Shown here piece after piece: positions 5,432-63,000 of a DNA stretch of 64,000 nucleotides; within the stretch, counting starts at the first letter, position 1, and each line of letters begins with the position of its first letter. Origin of the DNA: Leucoraja erinacea (lineage: Eukaryota); the NCBI RefSeq assembly GCF_028641065.1, contig NC_073381.1, forward strand, positions 39,804,001-39,868,000, read 5' to 3'. The notes beneath the pieces are model-generated. The model searched no databases. It was not told where the DNA came from and saw only the letters and a program-made list of their open reading frames with translations. A program made the translations under genes and the position numbers.

Positions 5432-13408
<7,977 letters not shown>

Positions 13409-20065: not shown

Positions 20066-20066
20066 A

Positions 20067-20271: not shown

Positions 20272-20356
20272 ATTTACTTTGCATCCATCTGAAAAAAGTT
20301 TATTTACAGCATAAACTTGCAGTACTTTAGCTTCCTGTGCTAACTCTCATAGGCTG

Positions 20357-24695: not shown

Positions 24696-26791
24696 ATTAA
24701 AGACAAAACTAATCAATAAAATAGAAGCTTCTGGGACAATACCCATGTTTAAATCAATAAGGAAACAATGTGAAATAAATGGAAAATGTTGGATGAAGAG
24801 CTTTTCATGGAGTAAAATGGATGAATTAAAATAATGTTTTTAAAACTGCTGCTTGTTTTCATCTTGCATTCATAAACAGGCACCAAAAGAAAAAGACACT
24901 GCAAATAGCACCTTAATTGAAGATTAAAAATTGGGCGAGTGTATTTGACTATCAAGGGCGTCATGAGTTATGGGGAGAAGGCAAGAGAATGGGGTTGAGG
25001 GGGAAAGAAATCAACCATGATTGAATGGTAGAGTAGACTTGATGGGCTAAATGGTGTCATTCTGCTCCTAAAACTCATGAACAAATTTATGGGAGTATAG
25101 ATGAAGATTAATCACTTTTTCCTTTCTCCCAACCAAAATTGCAGCCGAATCAATACAAATGGCATACTATAGGGAGGCACAGGAAAATACGGTGGTTTTT
25201 TTGGGGTGTAAGAGGAAAAAAAAAGTTCTTCGGAAGAAAAAACCAAGTCAAAATTAGCCACTTGCCAGTCTATTTTAAACTAAAAAAAATGATTGGAGAA
25301 CATTCACTTAGATATCACAAGGTTTTGCAGATTGCTTAAAATCAATATGCAGGTTATGTGATGGCAGACTCTATGCATCTGTGACCTGAATCTGCATTGT
25401 CTAGCATGGTAGCAGAAATATGAACATTTTCCTCCCACCACAGGAGGGGAAATTCATATTTGTTTAAAAAACACACTGGATCACTTGCATTTGTCACAGA
25501 TGATAATTTTGGCCATGGCAAGATACACTAGGTTGTACCAGCACTACTTTTACTAAGGTCCTGTAGGGTAGGAGATACGACAGGGTGGTAAAAGTTTATT
25601 TAAAAAATAAATAAATAAAAGGCACTAAAAAGAAAAAACAGCTTCATAGTAAAGATACTGAAAGCCGATCTAACCAAAGCAGAGTTTCACCTCCAATATT
25701 GCCACATGAACCTTTACACTAAAATAATACAATTGTTCCATGGGACTTGTACAATTTCCAATGTCAGTAAAACCAATTAAGGGTTATTTGCCTGTAATCT
25801 TGAAAGATCAACACCAATCCTATAATCTGTTCAATTGAAAGTTGAACTCCTTTAACGAGTTGAAGGTTAACAAACACAATTAAGATCCTGGCTGGTAGAT
25901 AGATGTGGTAAAGACCATGAAGCTAGTATTTTCCACTGTCAGAGGTGCAGAATTTGGATTGCAGTTTTGCAGATATATCAATTCATGACTTGACCACAAG
26001 ATTTGTCAAGTGCAGTCTTGCAGATCAAATCTGCTCAAAGCAGGTAGGGATACACATTCACTACAGAAATCTTGCCCAGCTATTTAAAAACCTAAAAATA
26101 GTAAGTTGCTTGCAATGTCATAATATTTAGTTTAACCACTTTTGCCAACCCATATTAGTCAATAATTCATAGGACAGACGGTTCAAAAGTACCTGGAATT
26201 AAGTGGGGCATGCAAAGTGGAGATTTGAGATCCACATAAAATATGGTATTAGAGCTACCATGGACTGTATCTACCAGAGAATCTGAAGGAGAGGATGAGA
26301 CAGTTAAAGGGAAGCCAGTTTAATCAATATACTTTTATTTGCCTAATGATACACATGCACTCTTACAAGAATTATTGCAACAATCAAGAAAATTGCCAAA
26401 CCGCTTCCTAGCACCCATTGCCAATACGATCGTGTTAGTCCACCTGGAAATCAAGAGAAGATTGAATACTTTCATACTTCACATGCCAGTTCCCATGCAT
26501 CTGCCCAACCCACTGAAATGTTATATTAGCAATGGATCTGAAAAAAGTACATTCAAATTCATCCAATTTCAGACTTGTGACTTGCTTTATGGGGTTGTGT
26601 GCAATTGCAGCCACTCTTTAGTGCTCAGTTTGCAAGATCACTTATTTGGAAAGTTCCCTCTCCACCCCAAATCAGACTCGGATGGCTTTCCCTCCACCAA
26701 AAAGAAATGCAATAGTAACAAGTCAATTTCAATGCCGGAAAGCACAAACCTTCAGAAAACAATATTGTATGTCATTGATAACTAGAAAAAG

Positions 26792-29700
26792 CTACTCCTC
26801 CAGTAAAAAGTCTGAAGTACATGGGCAGTCTAGCAAAGCATGCCTTCGCAGGAATGTCAGCAAATATATGGAATGGTCATAAAGTGTGTGTTGTAGTGTC
26901 AGTCCCAAGCTTTGCAGAATCAAAACTGCCAATTTAAAATCACTGCCACTTGTAAAGTGCCCATGAAATTCAGCAATATGCCATTCCAAAAAGAAAGTCA
27001 ACTCGCCTTCAGTTTTTGCATGTTCCAACCTGCCAGCAAAAAGCCAAACTTCTCCAAGTGACACATATTCTTTGTGCATGTTCAGGTAGGTACTCTGGCC
27101 TGGAAAAAACACGTTAAAATCTTCACAGAAAATTCAAATTTAAGTAAGCAATATGTACATTAGGTCTCATCAATTACCTTTTTCTACTGTGCATTGTCCA
27201 TCGCAAGAAAAATTTGTATCTGGATTATTAATGCAGATCACAACACTGCAGTGGCCATATATCTACAAATACAATGACAATATCCATTTGGTGAATCAAA
27301 CTACATGTGGTTTCTACATGAAAAGTCAGCAATGTGGACAGATGAAGCAAAACAGTGTTTACTATTAAATTCAAATGGGTGAAGTTTTGCAGTCTCCAGA
27401 CTTACTTTTTCAGGCAACACCGTTTCTGGTGGGAGAGATAGTTTCTGTATTTTTACTTCAAATCTTTTCAGCTGGTGAAAGTTCTGGGTGGTGTTGGATG
27501 CAGGATGGAATGTAGTGACAAATATTTCTTCATTGCTTGCACAACTGTTCAGAAAACAAATTTAGTTTAGACAGATTAGGCATGCAGGTGCAGCAGGCAG
27601 TAAAGAAAGCGAATGGTATGTTAGCTTTCATTGCGAAAAGATTTGAGTATTGGAGCAGGGAGGTTCTACTGCAGTTGTACAGGGTCTTGGTGAGACCACA
27701 CCTGGAGTATTGCGTACAGTTTTGGTCTCCAAATCTGAGTAAGGACATTATTGCCATAGAGGGAGTGCAGAGAAGGTTCACCAGACTGATTCCTGGGATG
27801 TCAGGACTGTCTTATGAAGAAAGACTGGATAGACTTGGTTTATACTCTCTAGAATTTAGGAGATTGCGAGGGGATCTTATAGAAACTTACAAAATTCTTA
27901 AGGGGTTGGACAGGCTAGATGCAGGAAGATTGTTCCCGATGTTGGGGAAGTCCAGGACAAGGGGTCACAGCAAGGATAAGGGGGAAATCCTTTAAAACCG
28001 AGATGAGAAGAACTTTTTTCACACAGAGAGTGGTGAATCTCTGGAACTCTCTGCCACAGAGGGTAGTTGAGGCCAGTTCATTGGCTATATTTAAGAGGGA
28101 GTTAAATGTGGCCCTTGTGGCTAAGGGGATCAGGGGGTATGGAGAGAAGGCAGGTACAGGATACCGAGTTGGATGATCAGCCATGATCATATTGAATGGC
28201 GGTGCAGGCTCGAAGGGCCTACTCCTGCACCCAATTTCTATGTTTCTATGAGGACCAGGGACAGTAACAAGGGATGCACACTTTTTCACTCCTTACCCAG
28301 CCCTGATAACATGCCATTGCGGTAGGCTGTTGCGATCAGGAGTTGTAGTCATCCAGCAATGATCTAACACCAGGTCAGTTTGACGATTGTTATTGTTCAG
28401 AAGCTCAACTTCAAAATAAAGGGTTTGTGTCCAATTCAAAGCCACTGGATATTCTTCATCCTTGTAAAAATCAAAGTAATCAGCAGCTATGGAAACAGAA
28501 GGATTGTGTTTAAAATGGGCAAGTGTGGGGAGTAGCAAACTCATCTTGCTTTTGCAAATAAACATTTTGCTTACTTTTGTAAATCTTAGAGTACAGTTCT
28601 GAAGTATGCCTTGGTCTCTTGACTCCTGGAAGAGGAAATAAACAATTTTTCCACAACAGGTTGACAAGCCAGCCTTCTGTATTCACAACAGACTGGTATA
28701 CAAAGTGTCATAGATGTCTTTTCCAGAACAGGTAATTGAAGGGAGCATAAAGCAATATTTTAACAGACACCAAAATACATTCCCTTGTGGCAAGCTAAAT
28801 ATATCAAAGCATTCAATTTTAATGTACAATATAATTGACCAGAGAGCACTTTTCCCTGGATCTCAGTATATATGTGACAACAATAAGCCATGACCATGGT
28901 GGTAGTGTGTCTATTGTAGAGTTATTTTCAAAGTACTTCACTAATTCAAGCCATACTTACCCCTCACTATTTGCAAATTGGCAGGATGCCGGGCATCTTT
29001 CTGGTATCTCTTCACAACCCCAACAGACAGAGTATTGTTCACTTCAAATCGACAGGTAACTGTTAAACTACGGTTAGGGGAAAGAAAGTGTTACTACTCG
29101 CATCTACATTTAAGTATCGATTTTGTCTAATTCAACCTACCGATAATCAGGGTCTCTAGTTATCACTGGGAAGTTCACAGGAATAACTTCTCTTGGGTAT
29201 GAAACTTCATTCTTATAGATCAAGTAATTCCCACGAATCTAAGAATATTACATAACCACAATTAAAAATTGGATTATTGAATTTTGGAAGCCTTAATGAG
29301 ACACGTACAAGGGAGCCTCCCATCCACTCAACTGTTCTGGTGGTGCCACAACTATTAATGTTGAACTTAAAGAGTGCTTTATGATCGTTAAATTCTTTTG
29401 GTTGGCATTTTCCATCATTTAGAACCATTTTACCAGGATCCAGGTCAGGTAGTGTATCCACAACTGCCGTGATCACCATTGTTCCATTTGGAAAGCACAC
29501 TAACAAGGAAATTAAATAGTTAGATACTTGCAAGATTTGAAAAACACACACCTTCATTTTATTTTTTTGAAAAACCCCCCAAAAATAAATAAATCGTGCC
29601 TGCAAGATCTCCAGGAAGAAAATTGCAGGCTACAGAAAAGTGAATCTGAATCTTCATTGTATTTTTGTCCTTCAATGTCAGGTTGAGTCTTGCTGCAATT

Positions 29701-32700
29701 CTTTGAAGACTCAGTTCCTGAGGAGGAGCCAGAGAACAAGTTACTCAGAAAATTGGGAAATAAAAGTGTGGAGGCACAAAATAAAAATTACATACCTCAT
29801 AAATCACACTCCTTCCAGAAAGTGGAACACCAATTAAAATATGGGTTGCATTATCCACAAGCAAGTATCCATAATTTTGTGAAGATTGTTGTGTTATCAG
29901 AAGGTCATCAATGAATGGAAGCCAATAGTCGACTAAATTTCCTTGAGTTACTAGTAGATACAAGTTCTTATCATCACAGTACCCAGTAGCCTTGGGCAAT
30001 ACTGGAGGAAAGAGAAAATAATTAAACTACAGATGAACTCTGCTTCAACATGAAGGAAGGAAGTGTTTGATTACTCACCAATATCTGGTATTTCATGTAC
30101 TATTTTTACATGCTGATGAAAAGGTTCATTTTCTGGAATTATTTTGAATATATAGATGACATCAAATATGTAGAGGCGAATGTTAGTATGTAGGTGCTGG
30201 AAGACAAAAATGATCCACTTGGCATGTCAAAGCAAGTTGTTTATTTGTTGTACAAAAATGACCAAACATTTTCCTTTTGATTATCCTTTATCATACACCT
30301 TCCAAGCAAAAGTTATGAACAGTCAATCCAAGGTTCATATCAACCAAGTTATTTACATTTTAAACATTATTAAATGCCCAAAAGGAGAGAATGAAATAGA
30401 TATTTTGGTGATGCAGTTTCTTTTAATTCCAAGAGTGGGAAGCTTATTCAGAATTGTAATATCCTTTTCAGCATCGTGTGGCAAAATGAGAAAAAGTCTG
30501 GCAATCCCATCATGGAAACACTGAAGCAGTCAGATCTGATGACAACCTTGCCTTTATGAGCAAGAGAGTTTCAATACCAGGGCAGATTTAATAACAAAGT
30601 TAGGTACCTCTGTGGCACCATCAACATGTTGGATGGTGTGCAATGTTTTACCCCATTGACACAAAAGTAACCCAAATCAAAATTTGAATTAGTGCTAGTG
30701 CAAATTTACTCTCAAATTAATTGCAATTTTGTTTAATAGCTCAAAGTAGTGAGACAAGCTTCACTGCGTTTACTTAGTTCAAGATTACTCGATCAGCAAA
30801 TGATGAATTCAACCAATCGTTATGTAGCCTTGCAATAGTAGGACCTCAAAGATTATGGGATAACCATCCAGTCAAGCATTCAATTCAGAATTTGAAAGTT
30901 AGATTGGTTACTTTACCTCTTGCTCTATATTTTCATTCTCAAATGGAACTTCCACTACGTAGACTTTGGTGTTGTTAGGCAGTGGCATTTCATAGATTGT
31001 GAACCCAGTCTTGTTTGCCTCATCCACTGGGATTATCTGTGTACCTACAGTTAAAGCTACAAGCTCTACATCAGGAAGGAAGTTTCCTACAGAAACATTG
31101 AATGTGCGCTTTTCTGGAATGGTATCTGCAAGGGGAAAAAAATAATAAAAAAAATTATTCATTGCATTATTCCACATAAGTAGTCCTACTCACAATACTT
31201 ACTATTGGTCACAATTGGTGGCCGAGGCATGAAGGGAGAGGCAACTGGATGGATGATTGTGTATTTGGTCAGCTCCCATTGATGTTCTGCAAGCAGTTCT
31301 ATCGAGTACACAATGCCGTACTGTCCTTGAACTACATGGCTCTAAAACACAAGTTAATGATGGATTAAGTAGCAGTCACAACTGCACTTTACGAATTTAA
31401 AACCTCACTGATAAGTGTACAAACCTTATAATTTCCACCTTTTGCTCCAATAGGAATAGTGACAACAATGTTTGTGTCATTGTATGCCAGTGGATAATTC
31501 AGCTCTGCCATTTTATCTGGGGTTAGAGGAACACCATTAACTCCCAAAACAATAGAGTTATCATAGAACTGTTCTTCATGAGAGGAAAGTGTTGGGATGA
31601 CTCTTGGTATTCTCCAGATGATCTCATCTTCAGTGTAAGTAGTGCCACCTGTTAAAGAGCAAGAATGCCTTTTAGCTTTTATACTTCACCTATAGGTGAT
31701 GACTAACATGTCCAACACTCAACCAGATAAGCAATATTGGTGGACAAAACCACAATTCAAATTGATCAAGATTGCATGCAACACGTCTTGGCATCAGTTC
31801 ACCATATTGATACACAAAGGCCATCTACACATGCTGGTTTAGATTACATGTAGAAGAAAATCATTAAGGGTTGTGGCACTTTAACTGTATACATGAGGGG
31901 TGGGGTAAGGAAAAAGGGGGAAACTTGATAACCAAAAAAATATTCACCTGTAGGACAGGCCACTGTTGTGTCAATCAAGAGGATCATCCATTCTTGTTTG
32001 TAGAAAGTAGTTGATCGAATGCTTGAAATGGGGCACATTTTCTACCTAGCAATGTATTATAGAGAGTTATTGCAGAAATAGATTTGTCAAATTACTTTTT
32101 GTAAAGCAATTTTGCACTCACCAGTAACAGTTCAACTTCAGTTGCATTGTAGGGAGCTCTTAACAATAGACGTGAAACTGTAGTGTCAATTCTGTAATGA
32201 TTACTCAATGTTTCATTGACAGTCATTGTCTCCATTCCTTCAGGAAGATGAAATACAACTTGCCAAATGGCATTTTCAGCTTCTTGAGCCTAAATAGTGG
32301 AGAATAAAGTTAATGCAAGCAGTTTGTGCTCAACAGAGGGGAGAAATGAAAACAGTAAGCAACTTACAGATGGAACTGCTGCCATCCAATCTTCATTGTG
32401 GTCATTCTCAATTCCTGGTATTACTCTTTGTACTGAAACCTAACCAAGAAAAAAGCAAAAATGTTGCAATTATACCGCAAAACTCGTAATGTGTACAACT
32501 AAATTTCCCATCAATTGTTGAGCCTCCCAGAGGCATCATGGGACCCCAACTCAATGAAACACCAGTGATGGGAGGCACATTTTAGCACTGTATAGGCAGT
32601 GCCCATCTTTTGACCTATATTCAGAGATGTGATTGAAAATGAACATTAAATTAGAATTATTAGTGTGAATAAGTGACTTAGATCCCCTTTAAAGAGAATC

Positions 32701-34631
32701 TTGTTCTACAGGTCAATATCCAAGTACAATATCACAAATTAATTGATTAACTCAAGGACAAGCAAGATCAGAAAATTAGAAAGCAGAGAAGGCAATTTTA
32801 GTTTTAGTGCAATATCTTTAATTGACAAGATGGCAGCTCTGAACAACAGTACATAAATCTAAGTGTCACTTTCATACAAAGCATACCTCCATGTAGTTTT
32901 GCTCACACAAGATTTCTCGTGCTTGCCATGGAAAATAGGAACAGCTCATTGTATGCAAGTAAGTTGATGCTCGCTCCATGGGACCAAACTGAATTTGTAG
33001 ATTCAGGCTAAATAAATCATCACCCTGGAAATAAGAGCAAAAAATAAATAAACATCCAAGTCAGAGCATTCTGGCTGCAAATAATGATGCCAAGTATTAG
33101 ATTTCTGCTGTTACTGAAAATTATTTCAAAATGAAGGGGGGGGGGGGGGGGGGGGGGGGGAGGGGAGGGGGGGGAAAGAAGAAGAAGAAGAATGAATAGG
33201 AAAATCATGAGACAACTTGTGTCTGTGTGGAACAAATTGCAGAAGTGGTTGGGTGCAGGTACTATAACGGCATTTAAGAGACGTTTGGACAGATACATGG
33301 TTGGGAAAAAAAACCCAGAGGAATATGGGCCAAATGTAGCACAGACAAGTTGTGTCAAAAAGACTTGTTTTTGTTCTGTACGATTATAATTCAATCTAAG
33401 AGCATTTAATAACAGTTTAACTTATATACTATTGTAATTTATTGACCCCAGTTGCCAACAAGCTGAGAGTACAATTTCAGGAATGTAAAAACTACTTTGG
33501 TAAAATGAAGTAACAAGCATGAAAAATGGCAGAATGCAGAACACATTCTGAAATGCTGTAAATCTTGTAATGACAGTAAATGCTGAATGTCTACAAGTAA
33601 CGAGACTTGCATCTAAGCTTTGCAGTCCAATGCCGAAAGCCACTATTTTACAAGACTATAGCCCAGATATTGCAGCCAGTAAGACGCCCTACAAGTTGTT
33701 TAAGAAGGAACTGCAGATGCTGGAAAATCGAAGGTAGACAAAAATGCTGGAGAAACTCAGCAGGTGAGGCAGCATCTATGGAGCGTAGACAAAAATGAAG
33801 GGTCTTGACCCGAATCGTCGCCTATTTCCTTCGCTCCATAGATGCTGCCTCACCTGCTGAGTTTCTCCAGCATTGTCTACCTACAATATCTCGTGGTCAG
33901 TTGTACAGAAGTTTCCGAATTTAATAAAAGTAATTCTGGTCCGTGAGCGCTTAAATTTCATTATGTTTCCTAATCAGGACGACCTCGCCCCTGGCCTTCC
34001 GCAACAGTGTATGCACTCACCTCGTTAACTACCATACAAGCCATAACAGATGCACGAACTAGCACGTTACCAAACGGATCCTGCGATACAGTGTAGCCGC
34101 ATTCAGTTGCGAACGACGGGGTGAGCAAGTAGACTTCGCCTGCTGAACCTAGTAATCGGAAAATAAAATGAGAACGGGACAGAGCAGAAACAAAAACAAA
34201 TGTGGACATTAGTTGTAGGTTTACCGGTGACTCCGAGACTCCACGGCTTGTCTTGCAGAAAGGAAGCATTCAGACGAATCCAAAAGAGGCGTCCATAACA
34301 GTGACCCTGTAACAGACCTACCAGCAAAACAAGAACAAAAAATAATAAGAGCGAGAAGAGAGAAACATGGAACTGCATATGCTGGTTTATAAAAAAAGGT
34401 GCAGGAGTAAATGGGTCGTGGCCCACACGTTATAAATCAGTACAAGAAAACTTGCCTTCAGGGGGCGAGGGTTGCATCCATACATCATTAATAAACAACG
34501 CCCAAAGCAACGTCAACCTAGAAAACACATCAAACGCTTGTTTGCATTGGGGAAGTTGCCAAGTAAGGAGAAAAAGTTGCACATTATCCAGGATAATGCA
34601 GCCTGTCTACCAACCTCAGCCAAGCAACCAT
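26792..34631 (-). CDS. ZPAX: Zona pellucida AX-family egg-envelope protein, copy a (possibly impaired); exons 34615-34631, 34456-34517, 34225-34317, 34021-34148, 32887-33024, 32368-32439, 32122-32289, 31948-32045 (or -32041), 31425-31648, 31203-31341, 30917-31125, 30079-30196, 29796-30001, 29600-29717, 29333-29499, 29141-29238, 28961-29067, 28575-28625, 28297-28486, 27406-27544, 27178-27262, 27007-27099, 26792-26829
   Basis: Signal peptide [20 protein letters not shown]; ZPAX N-terminal motifs ([38 protein letters not shown]); ZP module CFPNGTM...[15 protein letters not shown]...LYFEVELL...[15 protein letters not shown]; exon-by-exon homology with copy b; one +1 frameshift in exon 8 and three GC donors. 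Confidence 0.85.
27580..28250 (+). mobile_element. Young CR1 insertion in ZPAX-a intron 19
   Basis: [17 protein letters not shown]...[14 protein letters not shown] with (TTTCTATG)n tail; nearly identical to 1-463. Confidence 0.92.
33136..33174 (+). repeat. Poly-G tract
   Basis: G25 followed by AGGGGAGGGGGGGG in ZPAX-a intron 4. Confidence 0.9.
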
Positions 34632-34800
34632 CCTGCAGCCCAGAACACAACCACGCCGCCAACTGCAGCAGGATCTATAATCTGGTAGCCGTGGTCGACT
34701 TTTAATCTTGTACTTCACTTTACCCACAATTAAAACAAATTAACTCCAAGGCCATTGCCAGCCAATGGCGGGGGCGGGGCGGAATATTGTCCCGAGGAAA
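34632..34800 (-). promoter_or_regulatory. ZPAX-a proximal promoter / 5' UTR
   Basis: Immediately upstream of ATG 34631; TATA-like TTATAG near 34675-34680, CCAAT near 34762, GC box GGGGCGGGGC 34771-34780. Confidence 0.5.
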
Positions 34801-38577: not shown

Positions 38578-39129
38578 CTATTGGAGGTAGTGGAAGCTGA
38601 TACTATAACAGCATTTGAGAGGCACTTGGAGAGGTTCATGGATATGAAATATTTAGGATGTAAACTATTTGCGGAATTAGCTTAGAGGGGGCATCTAGGT
38701 CTGCCTGGTCAAGTTGGGCTGGGCTGAAGGATCTGGTTTGGTTTTGTATTGTCCCCAGACTAAAGCACTCTTTAGACACCAGTAAAATCTGTTATCTTTT
38801 AGAGAATTTTAAAGATATTAATAACATGCAAGCATTATTTCATATTCTGAGATTAGACCACCTGAATAGCATTAACTCGTTTATATTTGCAAGAACATGC
38901 GTTCTGTATGATTCTGTAAATTTATCGGTGCTTACAATGTGATAATGATAGACCCTACCCTTCCCGTCTGACGGTGATTTCAGGGTATTTTCCCCGATCT
39001 CGTTACTACACTACCATGACATTTTGTGAATTGGGTAAAAAAATCTATTGGGCTCCATTTCTGAGCTGTGATGGCTTTGTGAATAATTTGGGCTATGGGG
39101 AATCAGTATCAGACAAGGGGGAGGATGAG

Positions 39130-40349: not shown

Positions 40350-40795
40350 TTGTACGATACGATAGAACTTTATTTATCTCAAGAGGGAAATTGATCTGCT
40401 AATTCATAAAACCACAAAATACATGAAACATGAAATTAAAGTGATGAGTGGAAAGGATTGGGGATGTGCAAGGATTGGGGGAGTCAGTCTACCCCTCGCC
40501 AGAAGGGGGAGGAATTGTACAGCTTGATAGCCACAAGGAAGAAGGATCTCCTGTGGCGTTCTGTACTGCATCTTGGTGGAACCAGTCTGTTGCTGAAGGT
40601 GCTCCTCAGGTTGTCCAGTGTGTCATGGAGGGGGTGAGCTGTATGGTCCAAGATGCTCCACAGATTGAGGAGCATCCTCCCCTCCAAGACCACCTCCCAT
40701 GAATCCAACTCCGCCCCAGACTAGAGCCAGCCTTATTGATGAATTTGTTAATCCTATTGGCATCCGCAGCCTTCGCCCTGCTGCCCCAGACTCTA
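40350..40795 (-). mobile_element. Rex1/Babar LINE 3' fragment
   Basis: WGSRAKAADANRINKFINKAGSSLG and HPLHDTL...PRCSTERHRRSF motifs. Confidence 0.8.
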
Positions 40796-41593
40796 TTATT
40801 CAAAGTCTAAACTGAATAAGATCTTCCCAAATGTTTCTCCTATTTGTGATAAATGTCTTCTTCAGGAAGCAACTATAACCCATTCCTTTGCCTCTTGTAT
40901 AAAGTTACATAATTTCTGGAGAGGAATTTTTGAAATTTTTTCTAAAACACTTAAAATAAAATTGGACCCCGACACTGAACTGATCACTCTAGGTACGTCA
41001 GAATCCTGTTCTGAGCTAACACTATTTCAAAGACGTTTCCTTAATTATGGCCTGATAATGGCGAAAGAACTAACACTTAAATTTTGGAAACGCACATCAG
41101 TCCCTACTGTTAAGATGTGGATTACAAACATGTCCAAGAGACTACATCATGAAAATATTAGACTTGTTTTGGCAGAAAAACCAGATCATTTTTCCAAGAC
41201 ATGGACACCCCTCACCGAATTCTTACAAGGATAGTTTGGCGCAACACAACTTTGGATTTACATCCAACTATGGGTTGGGTGAGGTGGGTGGGGAGGGACG
41301 AGAGGCAGGTATATCTCCACTTTTTTTTCTCTTTTTCTATTTGTTCTTTTTTTCCCTTCTTTTCTTTCTTTTACCCACTCTTTGGCTACGCTACTTTGGT
41401 AGTCTACGGGTCCTATCTTTGCACCTCTCACTTTTTCGCTCTCTTGCTCTTTCTCTTTTCTTTTCCTCTATTTTAAAGTTAAAAAGTTAAAATTGAAGCT
41501 GTACATTAACAGTATAATTTTATATGCCGTTTGTTTTACTCTTGTACATTTGCTTCTAATAAATAAAAATAAAAAAATTAAAATTAAAAAAAA
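40795..41593 (+). mobile_element. L1/Tx1-type LINE 3' end
   Basis: KLNKIFPNVSPICDKC...THSFASC CCHC knuckle, T-rich 3' UTR, AATAAA and A-rich tail. Confidence 0.82.
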
Positions 41594-41594
41594 G

Positions 41595-44500
41595 GAACAT
41601 AACTGGTGGTAACAGGTGCAGAGGGCGGCAAAATGGCCGGTGGACGTCCTCTACGCCACGGATTAGCCACCGCCACCTGGCTATCCTCGTCGACGTGTGC
41701 TGGCTTAAGGCGGCTCACGGAGACGATCACCTCCTTGCCACCCATGTCGAGGTACCAGTCCTCAGCACCCTGTACGGACCCTCGTACACCCGCGGTAACG
41801 GCGAGCGGTGAGCATCCCTACGAAGGGAAACATAAGCACAATCCCGTAACATAGTAGGGTCATGCACTGCGGACGACCCATGCCGGGAAGTGGGAACCGG
41901 GACCAAAGTGCGCGCCAGCTTGCGAAGGTCAGCTAACACGGCCGAAGCCGGGACCTGCTGATCCCGGGGAATGGGCAGCAAATCCCCAGGTACTCGCAAA
42001 ACTAAGCCATAAACCAGCTCGGCCAAGGAGGCTTTGAGGTCCTCCTTAGGCGTGGTTCTGATGCCTCGGAGGACCCAAGGCAACTGGTCGACCCAATCTG
42101 GGCTGGTGAGTCGAGCTTTCAACGCCGACTTGAGGTGCCTGTGGAAACGCTCAACCAACCCGTTGGACTCTGGATGATACGCGGTGGTCTGATACAGCTT
42201 CGCTCCATACAGCTGTGCCATACCGCACCACAGGAAGGACATGAACTGGGCCCCTCGATCAGTAGTGATATCGGAGGGAATCCCGAAACGAGCAATCCAA
42301 TGTGAGACGATAGCCCACGCATAAGCCTCAACGGAGGTATCAGTTAACAGTATCGCCTCCGCCCACCTGGTAAACCTGTCCACGATAGTCAGTAGGTGAG
42401 TGGCCCCGTGCGAACACGGCAAGGGACCTACCAAGTCGACATGGATGTGCAGGAACCTGCTGTCCGGGACAGCGAAATCCTGCACGGGCGGGCGCACATG
42501 CCTCTGTACCTTGGAAGTCTGGCAGGGGATGCAAGAGTGGGCCCATGCTGCGACCTGCTATCGTAACCCATGCCAGACAAACTTGGCCGCGACCAGGGCA
42601 GAGGTGGCGCAAATGGACAGGTGTGCTAGGCTGTGGATGGTGTTGAAAATCCGACGCCTCCAGGCAAGCAGGACAATGGGAATGGGCTTTGCCCATGGAG
42701 ACATCACAAAGGACCCGCACGCCGGCGGCGCTGCAGGGCACCTTAACCAGCTTAAGTCCTGATTCAGCATTGCTGTAAACCTCCATACGGGCATCTACCT
42801 GTTGGGCAGCGGCCTGCTCCTCATAATCCACGCCTAGACAGAGCGGAAACCTCGGGGGCTGCCGGACGGGACAGCGCGTCAGCTACAACGTTCAGCTTCC
42901 CAGCCACATGCCGAATATCAGATGTGAATTCGGAAATGTAGGCGAGGTGCCTCTGTTGCCGGGCAGACCAGGGATCGGACACCTTGGTCAAAGCGAACGC
43001 GAGTGGTTTGTGGTATGTGAATGCGGTGAACGTGCGCCCCTCTAGGAAATAACGGAAATGGCGGATCGCTAGGTAGAGCGCGAGGAGTTCCCGATCGAAA
43101 GCGCTGTACTTAACTTTGGGGGCTCGCAGCTGCCTGCTGAAAAATGCCAGCGGCACCCAGCAGCTACCTACTCGTTGTTCGAGGACAGCATCCACCACGA
43201 CGTCGGATGCATCCACGGTGAGGACCGTTTGGGCTGACCGCCTACGGTGTTCCAGCATAGTGGCGTTGGCCAATGCAGTCTTAGCCCCCTCGAACGCCGT
43301 CTCCGCCTCCTTGGACCAGACCAGGTCCTTAGGTTTACCAGCCAGACATTGGAACAACGGCCGCATGATGGCGGCTGGTGATGGTCGAATTGGTGGTAGA
43401 AATTAACCATTCTGATAAACTCCTGTAGACCCTTGACTGATAGCGGCCTCGGGACAGGCGACGGATAGCATCGACTTTCTCGAGCAGCGGCTGTGCGCTG
43501 TGACAGGTGATGCTGTGATCCAAGAATGAAATGGAATGGAATCCAAACTGGCACTTCGCGGGGTTGATCACCAACCCGTGTTCGCGCAGCCGTTCGAAAA
43601 GCAGGCAGAGGTGCTTGACATGCTCCGCCTGCGAGCTGCTGGCCACCAGAATATGAACGGCAAACCCCGACCGACCTGATTCATTAACCTTTGGAACGCC
43701 TGAGCAGCGTTCTTCAGGCCAAAAGGCATCCTTAGCCATTCGAAAAGGCCGAAAAGGGTGATGGTGGCCATCTTAGGGACGTCGTTGGGATGGACCGGAA
43801 TTAGATTATACCCGCGAATGAGGTCGACCTTCAAGAAGAAGGTTCCGTCCTCCAAATGCGCCGAGAAATCTTGGATGTTCGGGACTGGGTACCGATCTGC
43901 CATGGTTATGGAGTTAAGGTGCCAGTAATCACCACAAGGTCTCCAACACCCGGACGCTTTAGGTACCATGTGCAGCGGGGAAGCCCAAGGGCTATACGAC
44001 CGCCGGACAAACCGCATGTCCTCCATAAGCTGGAACTCGTCTTGTGCGATGCGCAGTTTATCGGACAGGAGGTGGCGTGCACAGGCGTGAACCGGTGGGC
44101 CCTCGGTGGGAATGTGGTGGACCACGCCATGACGGGGTGCGGCCCCGTTGAATCGGGGCATGAGCAACCCTGGGAAATCGGCAAGCAGGGCTGCAAAAGG
44201 TTGCTGGATCTCAGCTACCTCGTCGAGTTGCTGTAGGGGCATGGACGGATTACGCGGCTTGGCAGGTCATAGGTCCGACACGGGGACCATGCGCCCGCCT
44301 CGCGCATCGACTAAGAAGGAGAACGCGCGCAAGAAATCGTCCCCCAGGATCGGTTGGGCGACGTCAGCAACGGTGAACTTCCACCTATATGGACAGGAGT
44401 CGAAATTTAAGTCCAGGGTCCGCGTACCATAAGTGCGAATGTCGTTCCCGTTATCAGCCGAGAGGACGGGTCCTACCTTACCGACGCGAGTATCTCGGGC

Positions 44501-45312
44501 GCTCGGCAGCAGGATGCTGGCAATGGCACCGGAGTCCACCAGGAAACAGTGGCCGGAATGGCGATCACGTTAGTGCCGATCGCGTTCGCCTCTATGGACG
44601 ATCGGCCGAGGCATTTCCCTGAAACGAGCAAATGCTCCGGCATCTTCGGGCTTCGGGGCCATAGTGCTGATGGTAGTAGCACCAACAACGTCGGCTGTAG
44701 ACCACTGGAAACGGTGATGCTTCTTCGGCGCTGGGCTGGGCTTCTTCTTCCTCCCGATGTTGTCTCGGTTTCACCCGTGCCCATAATTTGTCGGCTCTCT
44801 CTGTGTGAGGTGCTGGGGGTCGCTGAAATCAGCTCCAGTGAGCATCAGTCGGACTTCGTCGGGCATCTGCTCCAGGAACGCCTGTTCGAAGAGCAGACAT
44901 GGTCGGTGCCCATCCATCAGGGCTAACATCTTCGCCATGATGGTAGATGGTAGATGGCTGCCGATCGTCGATGCTAGGATCTTCCCCGCCCTGTCTCTGC
45001 GACTGAGACCGAACGTGTGGAGCAGGAGCCCTTCATACTTGACGATGGTCGGCGGGTCTCTGATGTAAGGCATCGGGATCACCAATTTGGCGGTCACAAG
45101 AATGACAACTGAGTTTTCAAACGTATTTTTATTCACAAAATAACTTCTCAGTTCACAGACTCTCACATACGTTTGGCCACATTGGTGGTCAGCACTGACC
45201 TGCCACACAAAAGCAAAACCACGTGAAAACAAGCAGCCCCTCCCGAGTCACGTAAACCGCGGCTTCCGAACGCCGGGTTTGATACCTGCGTGCGCCAGCA
45301 GATGCCGCTACA
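41595..45312 (-). mobile_element. Gypsy LTR retrotransposon, degenerate: 5' LTR 45086-45312, tRNA-Trp PBS 45071-45084, gag-pro-RT-RH-IN; 3' LTR absent
   Basis: LTR starts TGTAGCGG, ends CCGCCAAA and contains AATAAA; PBS TGGTGATCCCGATG; gag (HTFGLSRRDRA, PCLLFEQAFLEQMP, CYYH..YG..ARRC), protease FLVDSGA, RT (SPWASPLHMVPK, RMPFGLKNAAQAFQR), RNase H (TVDASD, YSAFDRELLA), integrase (HVDLVGPL, TTDRGAQF, YHPESNGLVERFH); many frameshifts. Confidence 0.93.
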
Positions 45313-45314
45313 TT

Positions 45315-45575
45315 AGCGCCCATCAGCGGGACTGCAAACCCCGGTGCTGCTCCAAAACCCTGCCACCGTCGCATTGCAAAAACTCACCCAAATATCAGCG
45401 CCATGGTCCAGAGTTCGCCCGTCCAGGCGGTGTCTGTCTTGTGCTGTTGCATCGTCCCCATTTGCAAGAGACAGCGCGTGAACCCGCTGTGAGTGGAAGC
45501 AGTGGGCGGGGGGGCGCGCTGTTTTGACCTGCCGCTGATTGCAGGCGGGCACGTGTCCCATGTCCAGGTGATGCG
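45315..45575 (-). pseudogene. Orphan duplicate of ZPAX-b promoter, exon 1 and part of intron 1
   Basis: Colinear with 62683-62992; retains gaccATGG (ATG 45404), coding MALIFG and donor GG|GTGAGT (45387); truncated by the Gypsy LTR at 45312. Confidence 0.88.
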
Positions 45576-45879
45576 GGCCGAGGCATTGCCCTCAGTCATT
45601 AACTTTTGCGTCATTTAGGGCATCAATCCAGCGGATGGAAACAAAGTCCATCGCAGGGATTTAATTGAAGCACTGAAGATTGGTGCAGCCAAATGAATGC
45701 CCTATGGAGAAGACCCCACCCCATTGTCCTTCGTTGTTGGATGAGGGGCTGAGTCCGGTGGGAGCATCCCTCAAACAAGTGAAGTGATATGACCCCTGGG
45801 GACAAACGGAAATAGCAAGGGTGTTTTGTTTAAAGATAGGTGCGAGCACCACTGAGTATGACACTGCACACATTCACTA

Positions 45880-54675: not shown

Positions 54676-57600
54676 TTAATCAGAGTCACTGCTTTTTTGA
54701 CATACACGACCAACAATTCCAAGTGCAATTGAACTAACAATAATTGTTGCACCTCCAATCAGCAGCACTGGCCAGGAATAAAATTCCATTTGGGCATCTG
54801 TGGGCCAGGGAAAATTAACAATTACAATTTTGAAAATTATGTTGCCTTGTAATAGCTCAAGAATGCTACCTCACCTCTCATGTCATGCTCTACATTTGGA
54901 AATTTTGCTACGAGCACTGCTCCCGACGATACAGATCCCTCCAAATGGTGCACTCCATCTACACTCCGACCTGCAATGACACCATGATCAGCACCAAGCT
55001 ACAAGCCACAAACAACCTTGCCATATTGTTAACTTACCCATTCGTTGTTTTCTTGGCATACATTTACCAGGACAGAGAAACTCGTTAATTGGGTCCTTCT
55101 TGCACAAAACTACACTGCAATGAAAGTACACCTGAGGGAGGAAAACATTAGTGAGACACTGCTCACTGGGTTTGAACATAATGTGGATAGCAATTCTCAC
55201 CTCTCGCAACAAGGTATTGAGATCTCCCAAGATGAATGCAAATGTCTTCACTTCAAATCTTTTCACATGGCTAGGATATCTCACCCTCTCATTCCTCACA
55301 ACACGATGGAAGATGGTCACTTGCAGATCAGCTTCATACTCACAGCTATTAATAAAACAAATTAGTCCATGCCAATTATTAATTGCCAACTATCCTTCAT
55401 CAGCAATGGTCACACTTACCTTTGGACAATGATGGGCCACTGTGGAATACTGTCTCTTCCTGGTGAGGCAGTTGCCCAGCAGGATTGCAAGAACAACTCA
55501 ATTTGTGGATCTTCATTGTGCAGCAGTTGCACTTCAAAGTAGAGGGGGACAGCCAGATACTTCACTACTGGATATTCATCTTTTTTGTACAATGTAGTAT
55601 AGGATTCATCTGCAAATTCAAAGGAAAATGTGGGTAGGTATCCAAAATAAAGTTGGGCCAGGAGAGTCATAAATCCCAGTGATCACTATTGAGAGTCAGG
55701 TCATTGTAAAGACTGAAAATATACCAAAGACTTTTACCTTTGGCAAGTTGCATAACCAAGACGATGGGTCCCATCCCAGGTACAACAACTGGCAGAGGAT
55801 TAATTTGGTGTTCAAACTGAAGATGCAGAGAATCATTTATGGGGTAACGACAAGATATTGCAAGTCTAGGAGGAGAAAATGTATAATTTATTCATACACA
55901 CATGGAATAAGGCAAACCCATTTAAATCGTTCTTACTGAAAGGTTGGCTCTTTAGTTGATTTGGCATCCATGTACACCACTTCATTCTCATAGATCATGT
56001 AATTCTTCTCAAACTAAGAAACAAAAAAAAAATGTTCAGCTATTAAATGGTTGTCCAGGACTTCCTGCAGACTCCACATGCCATTTACACACCAATTGTT
56101 TACCCTTCTCGTTGTGCCACAGGAATCCACAGAAAAGTCAAAGACTGCTTCGAACTTGCTTTCCTTTGCCTTGCAAGTCTGGTCTTTCAGCACGATTGTG
56201 CTAGCATCCATTCTCAACTGTCTTCCAAGTTTCACAGCAGTAATCATAATCCAGCCATTTGGGAAACATCCTGAAAGAGGAAAGGTTCATCATCACCAAG
56301 AATAAATGATGGCATGCAGCTATTAGTTGGGAAGTAAAACCAAAAACTTACTTATGAAGTCAGCAGTAGGAAAGCTGCAGGAAAGAGAAAAGTTCATCAG
56401 CACCTCGAAGGTTTTATTATCCCTCAGTTGGAAGTCAAATCTGCTCCGAAGGCCTTGGTGATTAATTGCCTGTGATGAGATAGCAATTGATTAATTTTGA
56501 TTCCATTCTAATAATTGCAAGACAGACCATTTGTGGAAACCACATACCTCATGGACAACTTCAGGTGAATCATGTGGAACAGTGATTGTTAAGTGGGTAC
56601 CATTCTCCCTCAAGATATACCCATCATGTTCAGAGTGTAGAGAGAGCTGCACGTTTCCAATGAAAGGGATCCAATATTGATCCAAAGTTCCGTGTGTAAT
56701 CAGTAAAGTCACATTTTCCTGGTCACAAAAGCCACTTGCCACTGGAAGTACTGGAGGAGGAAAGAGTTCCTTAATCAGTCAGGGGATCTCGAAGTTACAA
56801 GAAGAAGGCCAAAACAACTCACCTATGTTGTGCTTGTGTACTAATTGAGCTACATAGGTGAACATTTCATCTTCTGGCACGACAGCCAAGGTGTAGATGA
56901 TGTCAAGGGTATATTGTTCAACACCATCTCCTATATACTAAAATATAAAGCAGAGACTTAGCAGCTGGTCAGATGACAGGGACATTTTACAAATAGGCCA
57001 TTACCTTCCTATCAACGACTGGAGACTCCATTGGAACTTCAAGAACAAATATTTTATCAAGGGTCGTCTCATTTGGGGTAGTCGCATTGTAAACATCAAA
57101 CAACTGGTTTGGTTCATCCACAGAAAAGGACTGAGAACCAAGAGTGAGTTTGTGCAGTTCCACATCAGGAAGAAAATTGCCCAATGATACATTGAATAGC
57201 CATTGTTCAGGTTTGGTATCTGAATAAGAGAAGTAGAATTAATTCTTGGAGATGCAGGTAAAATATTTCTACCAATTGGTATGAACAGTCTTCAGACCAC
57301 AATCTTTCACTTTGATTCTAGATACTAGACATTGTTTTTGATTATAGTTGTAAGATCACACCAGATCATTTGGATCCAGTCAATTACTTCCAAAATATTT
57401 GGTTCAGTCAACCAAGATTTCAGCAAAAAGAGCGAAAGAATACAGCAAGATGGAGTCTCTAGTTATTCACCCACAGCATTGTGTATGGTCAAACCCTGCA
57501 AAGTCAAGTACATTGCTTTCTTCTTTGTATACACTAACACATTGTTTCACTTATAAGTGGTGCCTCCCATGAATGGCAATAGCATTTTTCCCTTCCCTGG

Positions 57601-60600
57601 TTCTATTATTGGCAGCCATATTTCATTCATGTTCTTCCAATAGCATTTGGATAGTTAACCATTTCCTGCTTTGATAGGAAATCAATCCTGAATTTAAACA
57701 ATTCTCAGTAACTATAGAATGATTGAGAACCTTTGTCAATAAATAGCTCAAGTTTACATTAACGACCCACAGTACCTACCATCAGTGAGAACCAGAGGCT
57801 TAGGAATAAAGGGAGTGGTGGCTGGATATATCACATTCATTTTATTCATTCCCCAGGTTTCATCTTCCCACACGTGTTCCAAAAACAGATTAATGCTATA
57901 CTTGATGCCATACTGGCCATCCATTACATGGCTCTGAAATAAAACATTTAAGTTATTAGAACCAAGTCACTTAAAGCTTCATTGGTAGACATTTAAATGT
58001 TTCTGATTGCGCATTGAGCCCTTCAAGTTCAAGTCTTCAGCTACATGCAGTCAAAAGTGGATGTGCAATTATGTAGAATGCTAAACTGGGTAGGGGCTTT
58101 GGTAGCACTATAGACTGCCAAGCCCAAGATATATTTGAAGTATGAACCACATTGCTCAGCGTACATGTGCTCCAGCCTCAAGACCTCAATCTTACTAATT
58201 TAGCAAGATTAAGATTAGCTTCTATAATTAAAATTGGTTAATATTTAGATGGATGCATTTAAATGTCCAGAGGGCCAAAGGTGATGTCTTCATTTGATAC
58301 TTATGGACATTCATTCCAGCAGCAAATTCAACTAACCTTGTAGTGTCCATCTTGTGCTCCAATTGGAACCTTTACAGCAAGTGCAGTGTCATTTTTATCC
58401 AAAGAATAATTTCTTTCTGTCATTATTTCAGGATCCAATTTGATACCATTTACTCCCATAGAACTGTTGTCTTTAAGAACTGCACTGGTCACAATTGGAG
58501 TGAATATTCTTGGCAATGTCCAGGTGATTAGGTCATCCACAAATGAAATATCACCTGGCAAGTGCAAAGAGAAAACTCGTTGGTTAAGATGCCACATACC
58601 CAATTATTTTAGACAAAGATTAAATAATGTCCTTTAAAAGATAAACTAGAATCTAGTGTTGTGGATCATTTCAAGGATGTGGTTTAGGATGCACTCATGG
58701 TGGGAAGCATATGGTCGATTATTGTGCAGAAAACATCCAGAATTTAATTTCAAACATGTCATTGGTAGACTTGTCTTTAGACTGATAAGGATTTGTTAAA
58801 GGCAAGGTAATCTTAGATCAACTTCACACCCAATTCAGCCAAATCAAATATTACTTAAAGCTTCAACCATTCTGCATGGCTTGATATTTCATTAAAGACA
58901 GGAAAATGACTAGTATCTGCTCACATTGGTAATAATTACCACAGATTACAAGAATGAAATTTTATATCTATTACACCTCCAAGACCACAGGATTGAAGTC
59001 CAGGCTCGAAAGAAAGCTGGCCAACATGTAATTTAGTTGAACATAGTTTTAAATAGAATGCAAATCAGTCAAATACAATTAATAGAACTGTAAAAATATT
59101 TTTACCAAGAGGACAAGCCACTGCAGTGTCAATTAACAGAATGATCCAATGCTGTTTGTAGAAGCTTGTTGATTTGATAACAGACAAGGGAACACCTTGG
59201 ACCTAAGGGAAGAAAGTTAAAGTATTATCTCACTCATCAGTGTTTTGAAGCACCACACACACACACTGCTACTAAGTGGAAAAGTAATTTGTGAACTCAC
59301 CAAAACGACTTCAGCTTCTTTTGTATGATAAGGAGCACGGAGCAAGATACGAGACACTGTGGTGTTGATTCCGTAATTTAGCTGATGTGCTTCTTTCACG
59401 GTCTTACTCACTTTACCACTGGAAGTGTGAAATACCACTTGCCATATTCCAGTTTCTCCTCCGACTGCCTGCATGGAACACCAGGGAAACATGAGCAACT
59501 TGAAAGTAATGAAGCAAATTCAGAAATTAATAACTCCAATTGCATTTCACTTTTGTTCCCAATCAAAACAATGTATTTTATGGATAAATATCAGTTTGAG
59601 AAAGTCCTCAACTTAATCGATACACTTCTTATTTGTAGAATGAAACTGTTGCTATTCATTAAATTAGATTTAATTTGGCAAAACAGGTAGAGAAAAAGGT
59701 GAACCTACTTCAGGAAATGCTAAAGCCCAATCTTCAGCATCTTGAGCGTAATCCTCCTCTATGGTCGGTATCTTTCTTTGTACAGAGACCTGTGCACAAT
59801 TGCAAGATTAGTGCATTGCAATAGAAACATTTGTACTCGAGTACAAACATTAATTTATATTTAATAGAATTGGCCAACACTTTCTCACAAGTTAGTGGCA
59901 AGGTACATTTTAAGATCTTTATTTATTTTGAGTGTTTTCAGTGAAGTTAGGTGGAAAGATGAGATTTAGACATGTAACTAGGGACAACCCAGGATTGTTT
60001 TGGTGTTGCAGATCATGCTCTTTGTCAACTATGGCTATAGTTCTGATCTTAAAAAACAATCAATGGAGTGGCAGAAATTTTGTTCACATTAACTACACAT
60101 TGTGGCACATGGCTCCATCTTGAACAAACAATTTTCTAAACTAATCATGTAGGTCAACAATTTCACAACTTCAATTTTGATGAAAGAATCTCAGCAATGT
60201 CTACAAATCAGAAGTTCAAATGTAATAAAATTTGATGAATTGTAGAACAATTCCTGTATTTGAGGTATGTGCAGAAGCCTCTGATAAAGTTAGTCTGATC
60301 AACTCATCTTCATCATATAGAATGGAGTTTACCTGCATGTAGTTTTCTTCACAGAAGATTTCCCTTTCAGCCCATGGAGAGTACATACAAGATAGAGTTT
60401 CAATGTATGTTGCAGCTCTGGAGGCAGGTCCTGACACTTGTATTTGTATGGTCAGATTAAACTGCTCATCATTCTGCAAATGAATTGGAAATGTACAAGT
60501 TATACCAAGAAAAGCACATGGTGATAATCTTGTCATCCATTGACACCACATGTGTACAATGTTGGGCTTGCTTTAGCATAGATCCATAATGCCATAAGCA

Positions 60601-62781
60601 CTACTTCCAGCTCACCTCCTACTTCAATGGCAGATCACATCCTTAGGATATAGTACTTAACCAAACAGTTGGACATCTAATTTTAAAGCAATCCCCATCA
60701 TCTATGCTGTAGCCATGTGCTCAAATATCCCCATGAAGTACCAGGGAATAGAGTTCAAACCTGACCTTTAGGAGCTCTCTGAAATTTACACATTCTCCTG
60801 CAACTGTGGGTTTGTTCCAGGAGCTCCAACTTTCGCACATCCCAAAGATGTTCAGGTTGGTAGTTTTTTTTTTGGCCAATGCAACATTGTATAGGGAGTG
60901 AATGTGAAATAGGTACAACAGAAATAATGCAAATGGGTGATTGATGGCCGACATAGTTTGGGACCAAAGGGACTGTTTCCATGATGGATCTTGCAATCAA
61001 AACCGTCATCTTCCTAGTAATTACTTACCAGTATTTGCACACCACAGCTGAGGACAGATGCACGGAATTCAACATTCCAGTAATCTACTGAAATTGTGTA
61101 ACCACACTGCGATGCAAATCTTGGTGTTACGGAGAATATATAACCCGACTGATCTGAGACAGGAAAACAGGATAAGTTAAACAGAAGATAGACAAAATGC
61201 TGGAGTAACTCATCAGGACAGGCAGCATCTCTGGAGAGAAGGAATGGGTGATGTTTCATTTAGAGACCCTTCTTCAGCATCTGCAGTTCCTTCCTACACA
61301 CAACAGGATAAGTTACTGTATTTAGTAGGTAGACACAGAATGCTGGAGAAACTCAGTGGGTGAGGCAGCATCTATGGAGAGAAGGAATTTGCAATGTTTC
61401 GGGTCAAGACCCTTCTTCGGAATGTGTATATCGCTACACATAGAAAAAAGCATTGGAATGAAGGACACAAATCCAAAAATTCAGGGAGTAAAGAACCAAA
61501 TAATTACAAATGTTACAAATGGATTAGGAGAATTGTTGCCCCAGTACAGGTAGGAAAGCTGTTGTACTAATTGGTAGGGAGTCAACCTGACAAAGTAACT
61601 GCCAAACCATTACAGACAACATATCAAATGCAACCAAGACAAATTCTAAGACTACAGCAGTAAACTTAAGACTTTATATTAAATTTTTCATAGGACAAGG
61701 TGTTAGATGATTAATGTTGCACTGAACATCCTGATCATCAAATGAAATCATGTTCAAGGATAGATGTGAGATATATTAGGACAAGTACATGGATGGTTTA
61801 GAGAGATATTGGCCAAACAGACAAATAGGACTAGCTTAGAGGAGTATCAAGGGCAGTTGGGCTGAAAGTGTTCCACATGTGTATCTGTACAAAATTGGTG
61901 TGAATAATCTTGCAAAGGGATACTATCTTGTTTCTGCTTAAATCTAACCTAATCACAAAAGCTTAATAGCTTATACAAGGTATTATCTTGGACAAAAGGA
62001 CAGATTTCCAATTCAAACATTGATTAGACAATTACAAACTCTGGTAACAGATGCCCTTATTCAGGATTGTATGCTTTTGAAGCTTCTCGGACTGAAAGTG
62101 CAAAGTGGCTTAAATCACCAATGGAAGTAGAGTGAAACTGCAGCAACATTTAACTAACTTACCCAAAACTTAAATTCAAAGCGAGCAATATTTTCATTGT
62201 ATCTATATCCCATCCTTGGGACAATAAACTGAATTAGAATCTGTTCTATGAATGTTGTATTCAAATTAGATATACTAATCTACTCCCAACATCCACCTTC
62301 AGGTGTAATGTTTTGCGCATAATTGTGAATTGTTTACTCCGCTAGTAATGATCAGTAACGTGGACAATAAACGTCGAGTCAGTGTAGTATCGTTCAACGC
62401 GGTTATAGCTCACGGAAAACTCACCGACGACGTTAATCTGCCACAGTTTCCCAGCGAGAAAGCGCTTGTCCAGTCCGACCCAAAATACACTGTCTCGGCA
62501 TTCAGTCTTCACAAAGCCTGCAGGAAAGTACAGAACACTCCAGTGTTAAGCGGACTGACCCGGCGCCTTTCCTGCCCTCCCCTCCCTCTAGTGCCACCCG
62601 GACACTGACCTGCAGGCGCACTTTGTATCCCCCTGTCAGGAGCTGCCGCGACCGTCGCCACCACCACCCTGTAAAATAAACGAGCGCCCATCAGTGGGAC
62701 GGCAAACCCCGGCGCTGCTCACAAACCCTGCCACCGTCGAATGACAAAAACTCACCCAAATATCAGCAGTACACGCGCCAT
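54676..62781 (-). CDS. ZPAX: Zona pellucida AX-family egg-envelope protein, copy b (intact, ~943 aa); exons 62756-62781, 62610-62668, 62425-62517, 61029-61153, 60333-60473, 59709-59789, 59301-59468, 59106-59202, 58337-58554, 57780-57933, 57005-57219, 56823-56937, 56548-56750, 56352-56469, 56104-56270, 55937-56013, 55738-55865, 55420-55609, 55201-55345, 55038-55131, 54875-54970, 54676-54797
   Basis: Signal peptide MARVLLIFGVVVATVAA; [38 protein letters not shown]; ZP module CFPNG...SCGTTRR, YKKDEYPVVKYLAVPLYFEVQLL...LQSCWAT, KRFEVKTFAF, VYFHCSVVLC; basic site RKQRMGR|S; TM WPVLLIGGATIIVSSIALGIVG; all introns GT-AG; exon lengths sum to 2832 nt in frame. Confidence 0.92.
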
Positions 62782-63000
62782 GGTCCAAAGCTCGCCCGTC
62801 CGGGCGGTGTCCGTCTTGTGTTGTTGCATCGTCCCCGTTTGCAAGAGACAGAGCGTGAACCCGCTGTAAATGGAAGCAGCGGGAAGGGGGCGCGCGCTAT
62901 TTATCCGGGTCCGGGTGGGACAGCGCGGCGGACACCTGGCGCTGATTGCAGGCGGACATGTGACCCGCGTCCAGGTGATGCGCCGAAAATGAATGATACC
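62782..63000 (-). promoter_or_regulatory. ZPAX-b CpG-rich promoter with E-boxes
   Basis: TATA-like ATAAATA 62898-62904; E-boxes at 62933-62938, 62957-62962 and 62982-62987; E-boxes bound by FIGLA are the known oocyte element of ZP promoters. Confidence 0.65.

Follow-up and report, generated by a model that had tools for sequence, protein, structure and literature searches.

A truncated copy of a ZPAX promoter and first exon adjoining a Gypsy-type LTR in the skate Leucoraja erinacea

Introduction

The window analyzed here, that is, the whole stretch of 64,000 nucleotides of contig NC_073381.1 from the skate Leucoraja erinacea, contains two egg-coat genes of the ZPAX type and, between them, an orphan copy of the promoter and first exon of one of these genes. 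Does this copy supply the other gene with an alternative first exon, or is it what is left of a dead duplicate? Promoter capture between paralogs was the headline of an earlier, sequence-only reading of this DNA, and its second option was that the copy is left over from another ZPAX gene into which a Gypsy element had inserted. A survey of titles and abstract beginnings turned up no published description of the locus; supplementary gene tables could bear on the skate ZPAX annotation.

Results

ZPAX-a (26346..34631, minus strand) comprises 23 exons, with three GC donors, and ZPAX-b (54676..62982, minus strand), the source of the copy, comprises 22 exons; both have open frames. Spliced alignment of homologs yielded stop-free coding sequences of 959 codons in 22 exons for ZPAX-b and of 932 codons in 22 aligned exons (23 including its own first exon) for ZPAX-a. 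The ZPAX-b frames are 99.7% identical to the L. erinacea protein P0150, one ZPAX-a exon is 100% identical to P0003, and the ZPAX-a frames of the window are 73-78% identical to ray ZPAX-a. Pfam searches with P0150 and P0142 revealed Ig-like repeats followed by ZP-N and ZP-C domains, and the homologs matched by the two genes include proteins named ZPAX1; both neighbors of the copy are ZPAX genes, with 43% identity between their proteins. Both also look constrained, judging by the identity to their Amblyraja counterparts (98.5% for ZPAX-b and 97.6% for ZPAX-a).

ZPAX-a possesses a promoter of its own, with GC boxes, ATTGG and TTATAG, and a 17-nt, phase-2 coding exon 1 at 34631-34615, the two together spanning 34615..34800 on the minus strand. 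Counterparts of this exon of the same length are found in the models of Hypanus, Hemitrygon and Pristis (stingray, sawfish) and of the sevengill shark Heptranchias, and the segment 33950-34860 lies on one contig in both related genomes, denoted B and C. The native first exon is old and intact, and ZPAX-a does not seem to need the copy. Since all three skate ZPAX-a models are devoid of exons 1-3, first-exon use in the skate gene is judged here from the ray and shark models; a protein search with exon 4 (4 hits among 10 candidates) detected no spliced skate N-terminal fragment of ZPAX-a, P0179 being an unspliced genomic ORF. In ZPAX-b, exon 1 is joined to exon 2 in the spliced Logan protein P0152.

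In the window both genes have open frames, whereas the skate models from NCBI either begin at a wrong start or pass around the three GC donors. The NCBI model of L. erinacea ZPAX-b begins at an ATG inside intron 1 (62668-62691, minus strand); P0152 and the Amblyraja ZPAX-b model use exon 1 and carry an additional Leu, absent from the window, where exons 1 and 2 meet. GC donors, the usual rate of which is 1%, are present in 3 of the 22 ZPAX-a introns (34455, 29599 and 27006, minus strand; P about 0.001) and in none of those of ZPAX-b, and one of them (GCACGA) is of the lowest-scoring type. Given that the NCBI models of both Leucoraja and Amblyraja skirt these three places, the GC donors may be shared among skates. 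Downstream of ZPAX-a, the plus strand carries exon-like frames of other genes (3064-3321, 5267-5551, 8524-8757 and 22967-23212), which, by eye, we take to be WD-repeat tail-like, TPR-like and ZZ-zinc-finger-like.

The copy itself (45315..45575, minus strand) is, by alignment, a duplicate of part of ZPAX-b that takes in its proximal promoter, its leader, exon 1 and 73 nt at the start of intron 1. Self-BLAST matched it to ZPAX-b 62683-62982 with 78% identity over 300 columns with gaps (E 1e-69); the local alignment score is 289, compared to a maximum of 27 among 100 shuffles, and the global alignment contains 27 mismatches in 261 columns and two deletions, one of 9 nt from the coding exon and one of 29 nt around the TATA-like site. 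Thus, the copy is a colinear, DNA-level duplicate that includes both promoter and intron, as the sequence-only reading had it, with the correction that the ZPAX-b counterpart ends at 62982 rather than at 62992; the in-frame 9-nt deletion is indeed the only indel in the coding part. An assembly artefact is ruled out by the 10% divergence and the two deletions. Exons 2, 3 and 4 of ZPAX-b were not found between 45314 and 34700 (BLAST, best E 0.28, with tblastx in agreement), which bears out the reported absence of exon 2, and tblastx of 52500-64000 found no third set of exons. With the later exons gone, the copy cannot encode a ZPAX-b protein. An unequal crossover between ZPAX-a and ZPAX-b was considered as well and appears implausible, given the low identity of the two proteins and the expectation that the product would carry the ZPAX-a 5' end.

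In the copied promoter, one E-box is retained at 45565..45570 (CACCTG on the minus strand, CAGGTG forward), along with a second CANNTG site, CACGTG at 45550-45555. At 45517..45527 (minus strand), the place of the 29-nt loss, the third E-box and the TATA-like GATAAA of ZPAX-b (at 62905 in that gene) are gone. The region 34600-35300 of ZPAX-a contains no CACCTG, its only CANNTG sites being CAGTTG at 34665 and CATGTG at 35049. On all these points, the motifs kept, the elements lost and the lack of CACCTG in the proximal promoter of ZPAX-a, the earlier description proved accurate. A sigma-70 promoter scan was set aside, the host being a vertebrate.

The copied exon-1 frame (45388..45461, minus strand) includes in-frame ATGs at 45461, 45452 and 45404, and its final 17 nt, with the 9-nt deletion, end in phase 2. 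The ATG at 45404 has A at -3 and G at +4, and the GTGAGT donor (45382..45387, minus strand) is intact and identical to that of ZPAX-b, so the Kozak ATG and the donor are preserved as claimed. Counted from 45404, the coding exon (45404-45388) is 17 nt long and in phase 2, like exon 1 of ZPAX-a; because the two upstream ATGs, which had been overlooked, are in frame, it may instead be 74 or 65 nt long, and the Amblyraja ZPAX-b model begins at the counterpart of the second of these (45452). The donor of the copy scores 9.8 vs 7.0 for the ZPAX-a donor, the ZPAX-b donor having been among the training sites.

When spliced to ZPAX-a exon 2 (acceptor before 34517), the copied exon produces a frame without a stop, and the resulting leader is hydrophobic, as had been proposed, with a maximum Kyte-Doolittle 11-mer value of 2.37 compared to 2.0 for the native ZPAX-a leader. 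In this respect, with an intact start codon and donor and in frame with ZPAX-a exon 2, the copy looks like an alternative first exon. However, the undeleted exon 1 of ZPAX-b also joins ZPAX-a exon 2 without a stop, to form an even more hydrophobic leader (2.59), and since it fits equally well, the matching phase is inherited.

The copy is abruptly followed by a retrotransposon. Its homology to ZPAX-b ends at 45315, and a Gypsy-type 5' LTR (45086..45312, minus strand) begins at 45312, with 2 bases between them; an apparent exon-2 remnant right after the copy was dismissed, the likeness falling in the start of the LTR (BLAST E 3.4). The LTR has inverted termini with 2 mismatches in 8 and contains a strong acceptor before 45199 and an AATAAA at 45133, with a PBS-like TGGT at 45084; we presume that the primer site is tRNA-Trp-like. 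The sequencing depth at 45254, within the LTR, is 16047 and 39532 in the two related genomes, single-copy DNA being at about 35. The element lies in the intron and in the same direction as the copy, the arrangement of a gene trap. Behind the LTR is a broken internal region (41600..45084, minus strand) that encodes a reverse transcriptase and then an integrase in several frames, an order that we take to mark the element as Gypsy; in Pfam searches, rve scored above the cut-off (E 1e-9), and RVT_1 and Integrase_H2C2 below it. The second, 3' LTR was not found in the window. The Gypsy-type element halts near 41600, against a 5'-truncated 3' end with an A-rich tail (40780..41594, plus strand) that we assign, presumptively, to an L1/Tx1-like family and for which a search found no target-site duplication.

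Several other repeats were noticed in the window. The tail of a fused ZPAX model from Narcine (P0002, residues 1766-1889) matches the Gypsy region 44093-44467 (minus strand) at 37%, so a related element seems to sit after ZPAX-a in that model. Another fragment that resembles a retrotransposon (38920-39603, plus strand) runs the opposite way and is integrase-tail-like by eye, with no Pfam match; the segment 38605-39236 is common to the window and genome B; and short inverted repeats at 20064-20274, 23644-23787 and 33732-33882 consist of back-to-back SINE/LINE pieces.

The signals that lie between the donor of the copy and ZPAX-a exon 2 were scored with an acceptor weight matrix derived from 43 acceptors of both ZPAX genes, with the ZPAX-a exon-2 site excluded; this is a small set, and a motif score is not equivalent to use. 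The LTR acceptor at 45199 scores 11.9, the highest of the 713 AG sites from the copy donor to 34517, whereas the ZPAX-a exon-2 acceptor scores 6.5 and is matched or beaten by 11 of these sites; long introns always hold decoy acceptors. The LTR acceptor is located 188 bases past the donor, and AATAAA at 45133, which leads a series of 20 poly(A) hexamers between the donor and ZPAX-a exon 2, follows 66 bases further (254 from the donor). Under this motif model, the copy differs from an alternative first exon in having a stronger acceptor and a poly(A) site before the shared exon; the copy donor, the LTR acceptor and AATAAA are predicted to form a gene-trap layout.

The divergence of the copy from ZPAX-b is nearly uniform. 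Block by block, we counted 6/49, 7/65 and 6/57 mismatches upstream (promoter and leader) and 8/67 in the intron, so promoter, leader and intron are alike at 10-12%. The exon (0/17) and donor (0/6) are free of mismatches, which has a probability of 0.08 at the overall rate and of 0.3 if half of the changes are on the side of the copy; this clean stretch counts in favor of promoter capture, yet is not significant. Seven of the 23 CpGs of ZPAX-b are TG or CA in the copy, compared to 2 of 19 in reverse (Fisher p 0.15), an asymmetry that leans towards methylation and decay without reaching significance; the CpG observed/expected ratio of the copy is still 0.81.

These data bear on the possibility that the stub, with two E-boxes in CpG-rich DNA, serves as a distal oocyte enhancer acting on the ZPAX-a promoter, with no exon involved. 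Although both CANNTG sites are kept, compared to only the two other sites of this type near ZPAX-a, and ZPAX-a appears to be under constraint (97.6% identity to Amblyraja), the E-box block (6/49) is about as diverged as the intron (8/67), and ZPAX-a, which is equipped with a promoter of its own, long predates the copy, so we consider such a role unlikely.

Outside CpGs, the copy differs from ZPAX-b at 14 of 205 positions (6.8%). Relative to genome B, the flanks in the window show 25, 22 and 10 changes over stretches of about 910, 630 and 310 bases, respectively, a difference of about 3%; relative to genome C, there are 43 in about 880 and 34 in about 570 bases, or 5-6%. On this comparison, the duplication is probably of similar age to the splits from B and C. 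The bin depth at the copy in genomes B and C (X4 and X6) is 218 and 215, values that speak neither for nor against the presence of the copy there; among the 16 pieces of these genomes listed (254424 more exist), none spans 45315-45856, and a gap there proves nothing.

Of 24 sequencing runs, four were covered, X4 and X6 for genomes B and C and two of RNA. The RNA runs X9 and X13 (5-6% of each; 2 of the 18 RNA or possible-RNA runs) had no reads at any of the 14 ZPAX-a positions listed in 34005-34668, and since ZPAX-a is not expressed there, these runs do not bear on the 45388-34517 junction; this joint is not among the 15 listed of the 2396 joints in these runs, in which the RNA depth over the bin 45416-45856 is 0-0.15. 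The exon-1 5-mer and the upstream 10-mer of the copy occur in none of the 179 proteins collected, among which there are few skate transcripts. An exact look-up of ORFs over the copy (0/5 in the protein collection) is uninformative because the ZPAX-b control ORFs (0/2) were missed too.

Duplication of ZPAX-b is not confined to the skate. Heptranchias has 7 ZPAX-b-like proteins that are 2-32 aa apart, and ZPAX-b-like pairs at 90-94% are present in Scyliorhinus canicula, two Chiloscyllium species and Heterodontus, one of them partial, with the members of a pair placed on contigs of equal length; ZPAX-b-like duplicates recur in sharks, and their order is presumably tandem. The many near-identical ZPAX-b-like and ZPAX-a-like proteins of Heptranchias perlo (P0014, P0161-P0166 and P0132-P0140) suggest recent amplification of its array. 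NCBI models of Pristis, Narcine and two Mobula (P0001, P0002, P0144 and P0148) fuse ZPAX-b with ZPAX-a into proteins of 1857-1936 aa with differing linkers; these are probably model artefacts, but they show that the b-then-a order is old in rays.

Discussion

The anatomy of the locus is best explained if the copy is the relic of a ZPAX-b duplicate that a Gypsy LTR of the same orientation interrupted, that a subsequent deletion shortened, and that is now silent or trapped, a reading to which we assign a probability of roughly 0.7. It fits because the homology ends 2 bases from the start of the LTR and exons 2-4 are all gone, and it upholds the second option of the sequence-only reading. We infer that the 261 bases are the surviving 5' end of a ZPAX-b duplicate that was originally longer and was situated between the two genes. 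A Gypsy-type retrotransposon would have inserted into intron 1 of the duplicate, in the same direction. The 3' end of the Gypsy, together with the remainder of the duplicate, would afterwards have been lost in a deletion that was probably linked to the L1-like insertion at 41594. Since then, the stub would have been decaying, with ZPAX-a not supplied by it; if its promoter still fires, the donor would most likely be spliced to the LTR acceptor and the RNA would end at the LTR poly(A) signal, with a predicted product of 17-36 codons. Against the relic stand the failure to find any remnant of the remainder of the duplicate in the window and the combination of the unchanged exon and donor (0/23), the in-frame deletion and the strong donor.

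The most direct alternative, that the stub of a dead ZPAX-b duplicate became a skate oocyte promoter and first exon for ZPAX-a, so that a secreted product with a ZPAX-b-type leader is made, is very unlikely in our estimation, and so, to the same degree, is the route that it implies, namely, splicing over 10.9 kb across the Gypsy and L1 insertions and past the strong LTR acceptor, under ZPAX-b-type E-box control. The intact ATG, frame and strong donor, all within the clean stretch, and the hydrophobicity of the joined leader speak for it, as do the missing first exon in all three skate ZPAX-a models and the two E-boxes kept in the copy, set against a ZPAX-a promoter without CACCTG; according to PMC1906760, FIGLA binds an E-box lying in the initial 200 bp of Zp promoters of the mouse. 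All the same, the frame is inherited, there is no significant constraint, the TATA-like site and one E-box are gone, the LTR places both a higher-scoring acceptor and a poly(A) signal in between, 188-254 bases on, and the native exon 1 is old and intact, being common to rays and a shark; the absence of the copy's peptides from the proteins collected is a weak additional point. For these reasons, the headline claim of the earlier reading is not supported.

Two further explanations were weighed. The copy might never have been longer, with about 300 bases of ZPAX-b copied into a repair junction, the LTR landing at or with its edge, and the result inert. The upstream boundary is sharp, its flank (45576-45860) has no other match in the window, and the later exons leave no trace, all as expected; but the position of the LTR start within 2 bases of the end of the copy must then be chance or one event, and the loss of the Gypsy 3' end means that a deletion took place here in any case, which makes this origin quite unlikely. 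Alternatively, the stub could be an active oocyte promoter of a trapped exon-1/LTR RNA or a Gypsy read-through RNA, for example, a source of small RNAs against the Gypsy family. The donor, the strong LTR acceptor and AATAAA follow in order within 260 bases, and this family is abundant in both related genomes; however, such an RNA would have the sense orientation of the element, the promoter has lesions, and no expression was seen in the two runs without ZPAX-a reads, so that a function of this kind is highly improbable.

The relic is not without parallels. Like truncated, unprocessed pseudogene fragments in tandem ZP arrays, the copy keeps promoter and intron and lies beside its parent, with most of the gene gone. 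PMC13704971 describes catfish ZP arrays shaped by tandem and segmental duplication, with pseudogenes among their members; compared to these, the copy survives as only 261 bases, and its silence is inferred. In mouse, according to PMC6466679, nearly all mutagenic ETn insertions are intronic, point in the direction of the gene and exert their effect by way of an acceptor in the LTR, followed by a donor or poly(A) signal, and the ETn and IAP alleles share with the skate locus the placement in intron 1, the same direction and a strong LTR acceptor followed by a poly(A) signal. The differences are that the skate element is Gypsy-type, its host was a redundant duplicate, and trapping is a prediction based solely on motifs. 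Variable first exons, as in UGT1, GCNT2 and the clustered protocadherins, also involve a duplicated promoter and first exon, in the same phase, upstream of common exons. Those exons, however, duplicate exon 1 of the same gene and account for most of the encoded protein, whereas the copy comes from a paralog with 43% identity and, through a putative junction, encodes part of a signal peptide. The copy resembles a variable first exon in layout but differs in the stronger acceptor and poly(A) signal ahead of the shared exon; clusters of such exons also hold pseudogene or relic exons, as PMC1885805 indicates.

Conclusions

Should ovary reads join the copy to ZPAX-a, it would be a clean example of a gene that has acquired a promoter and the beginning of a signal peptide from its paralog. 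As a relic, the copy matters little by itself; it would represent a further instance in which a ZPAX-b copy arose and died at a shark and ray locus that often duplicates, with a clear candidate for the cause of death.
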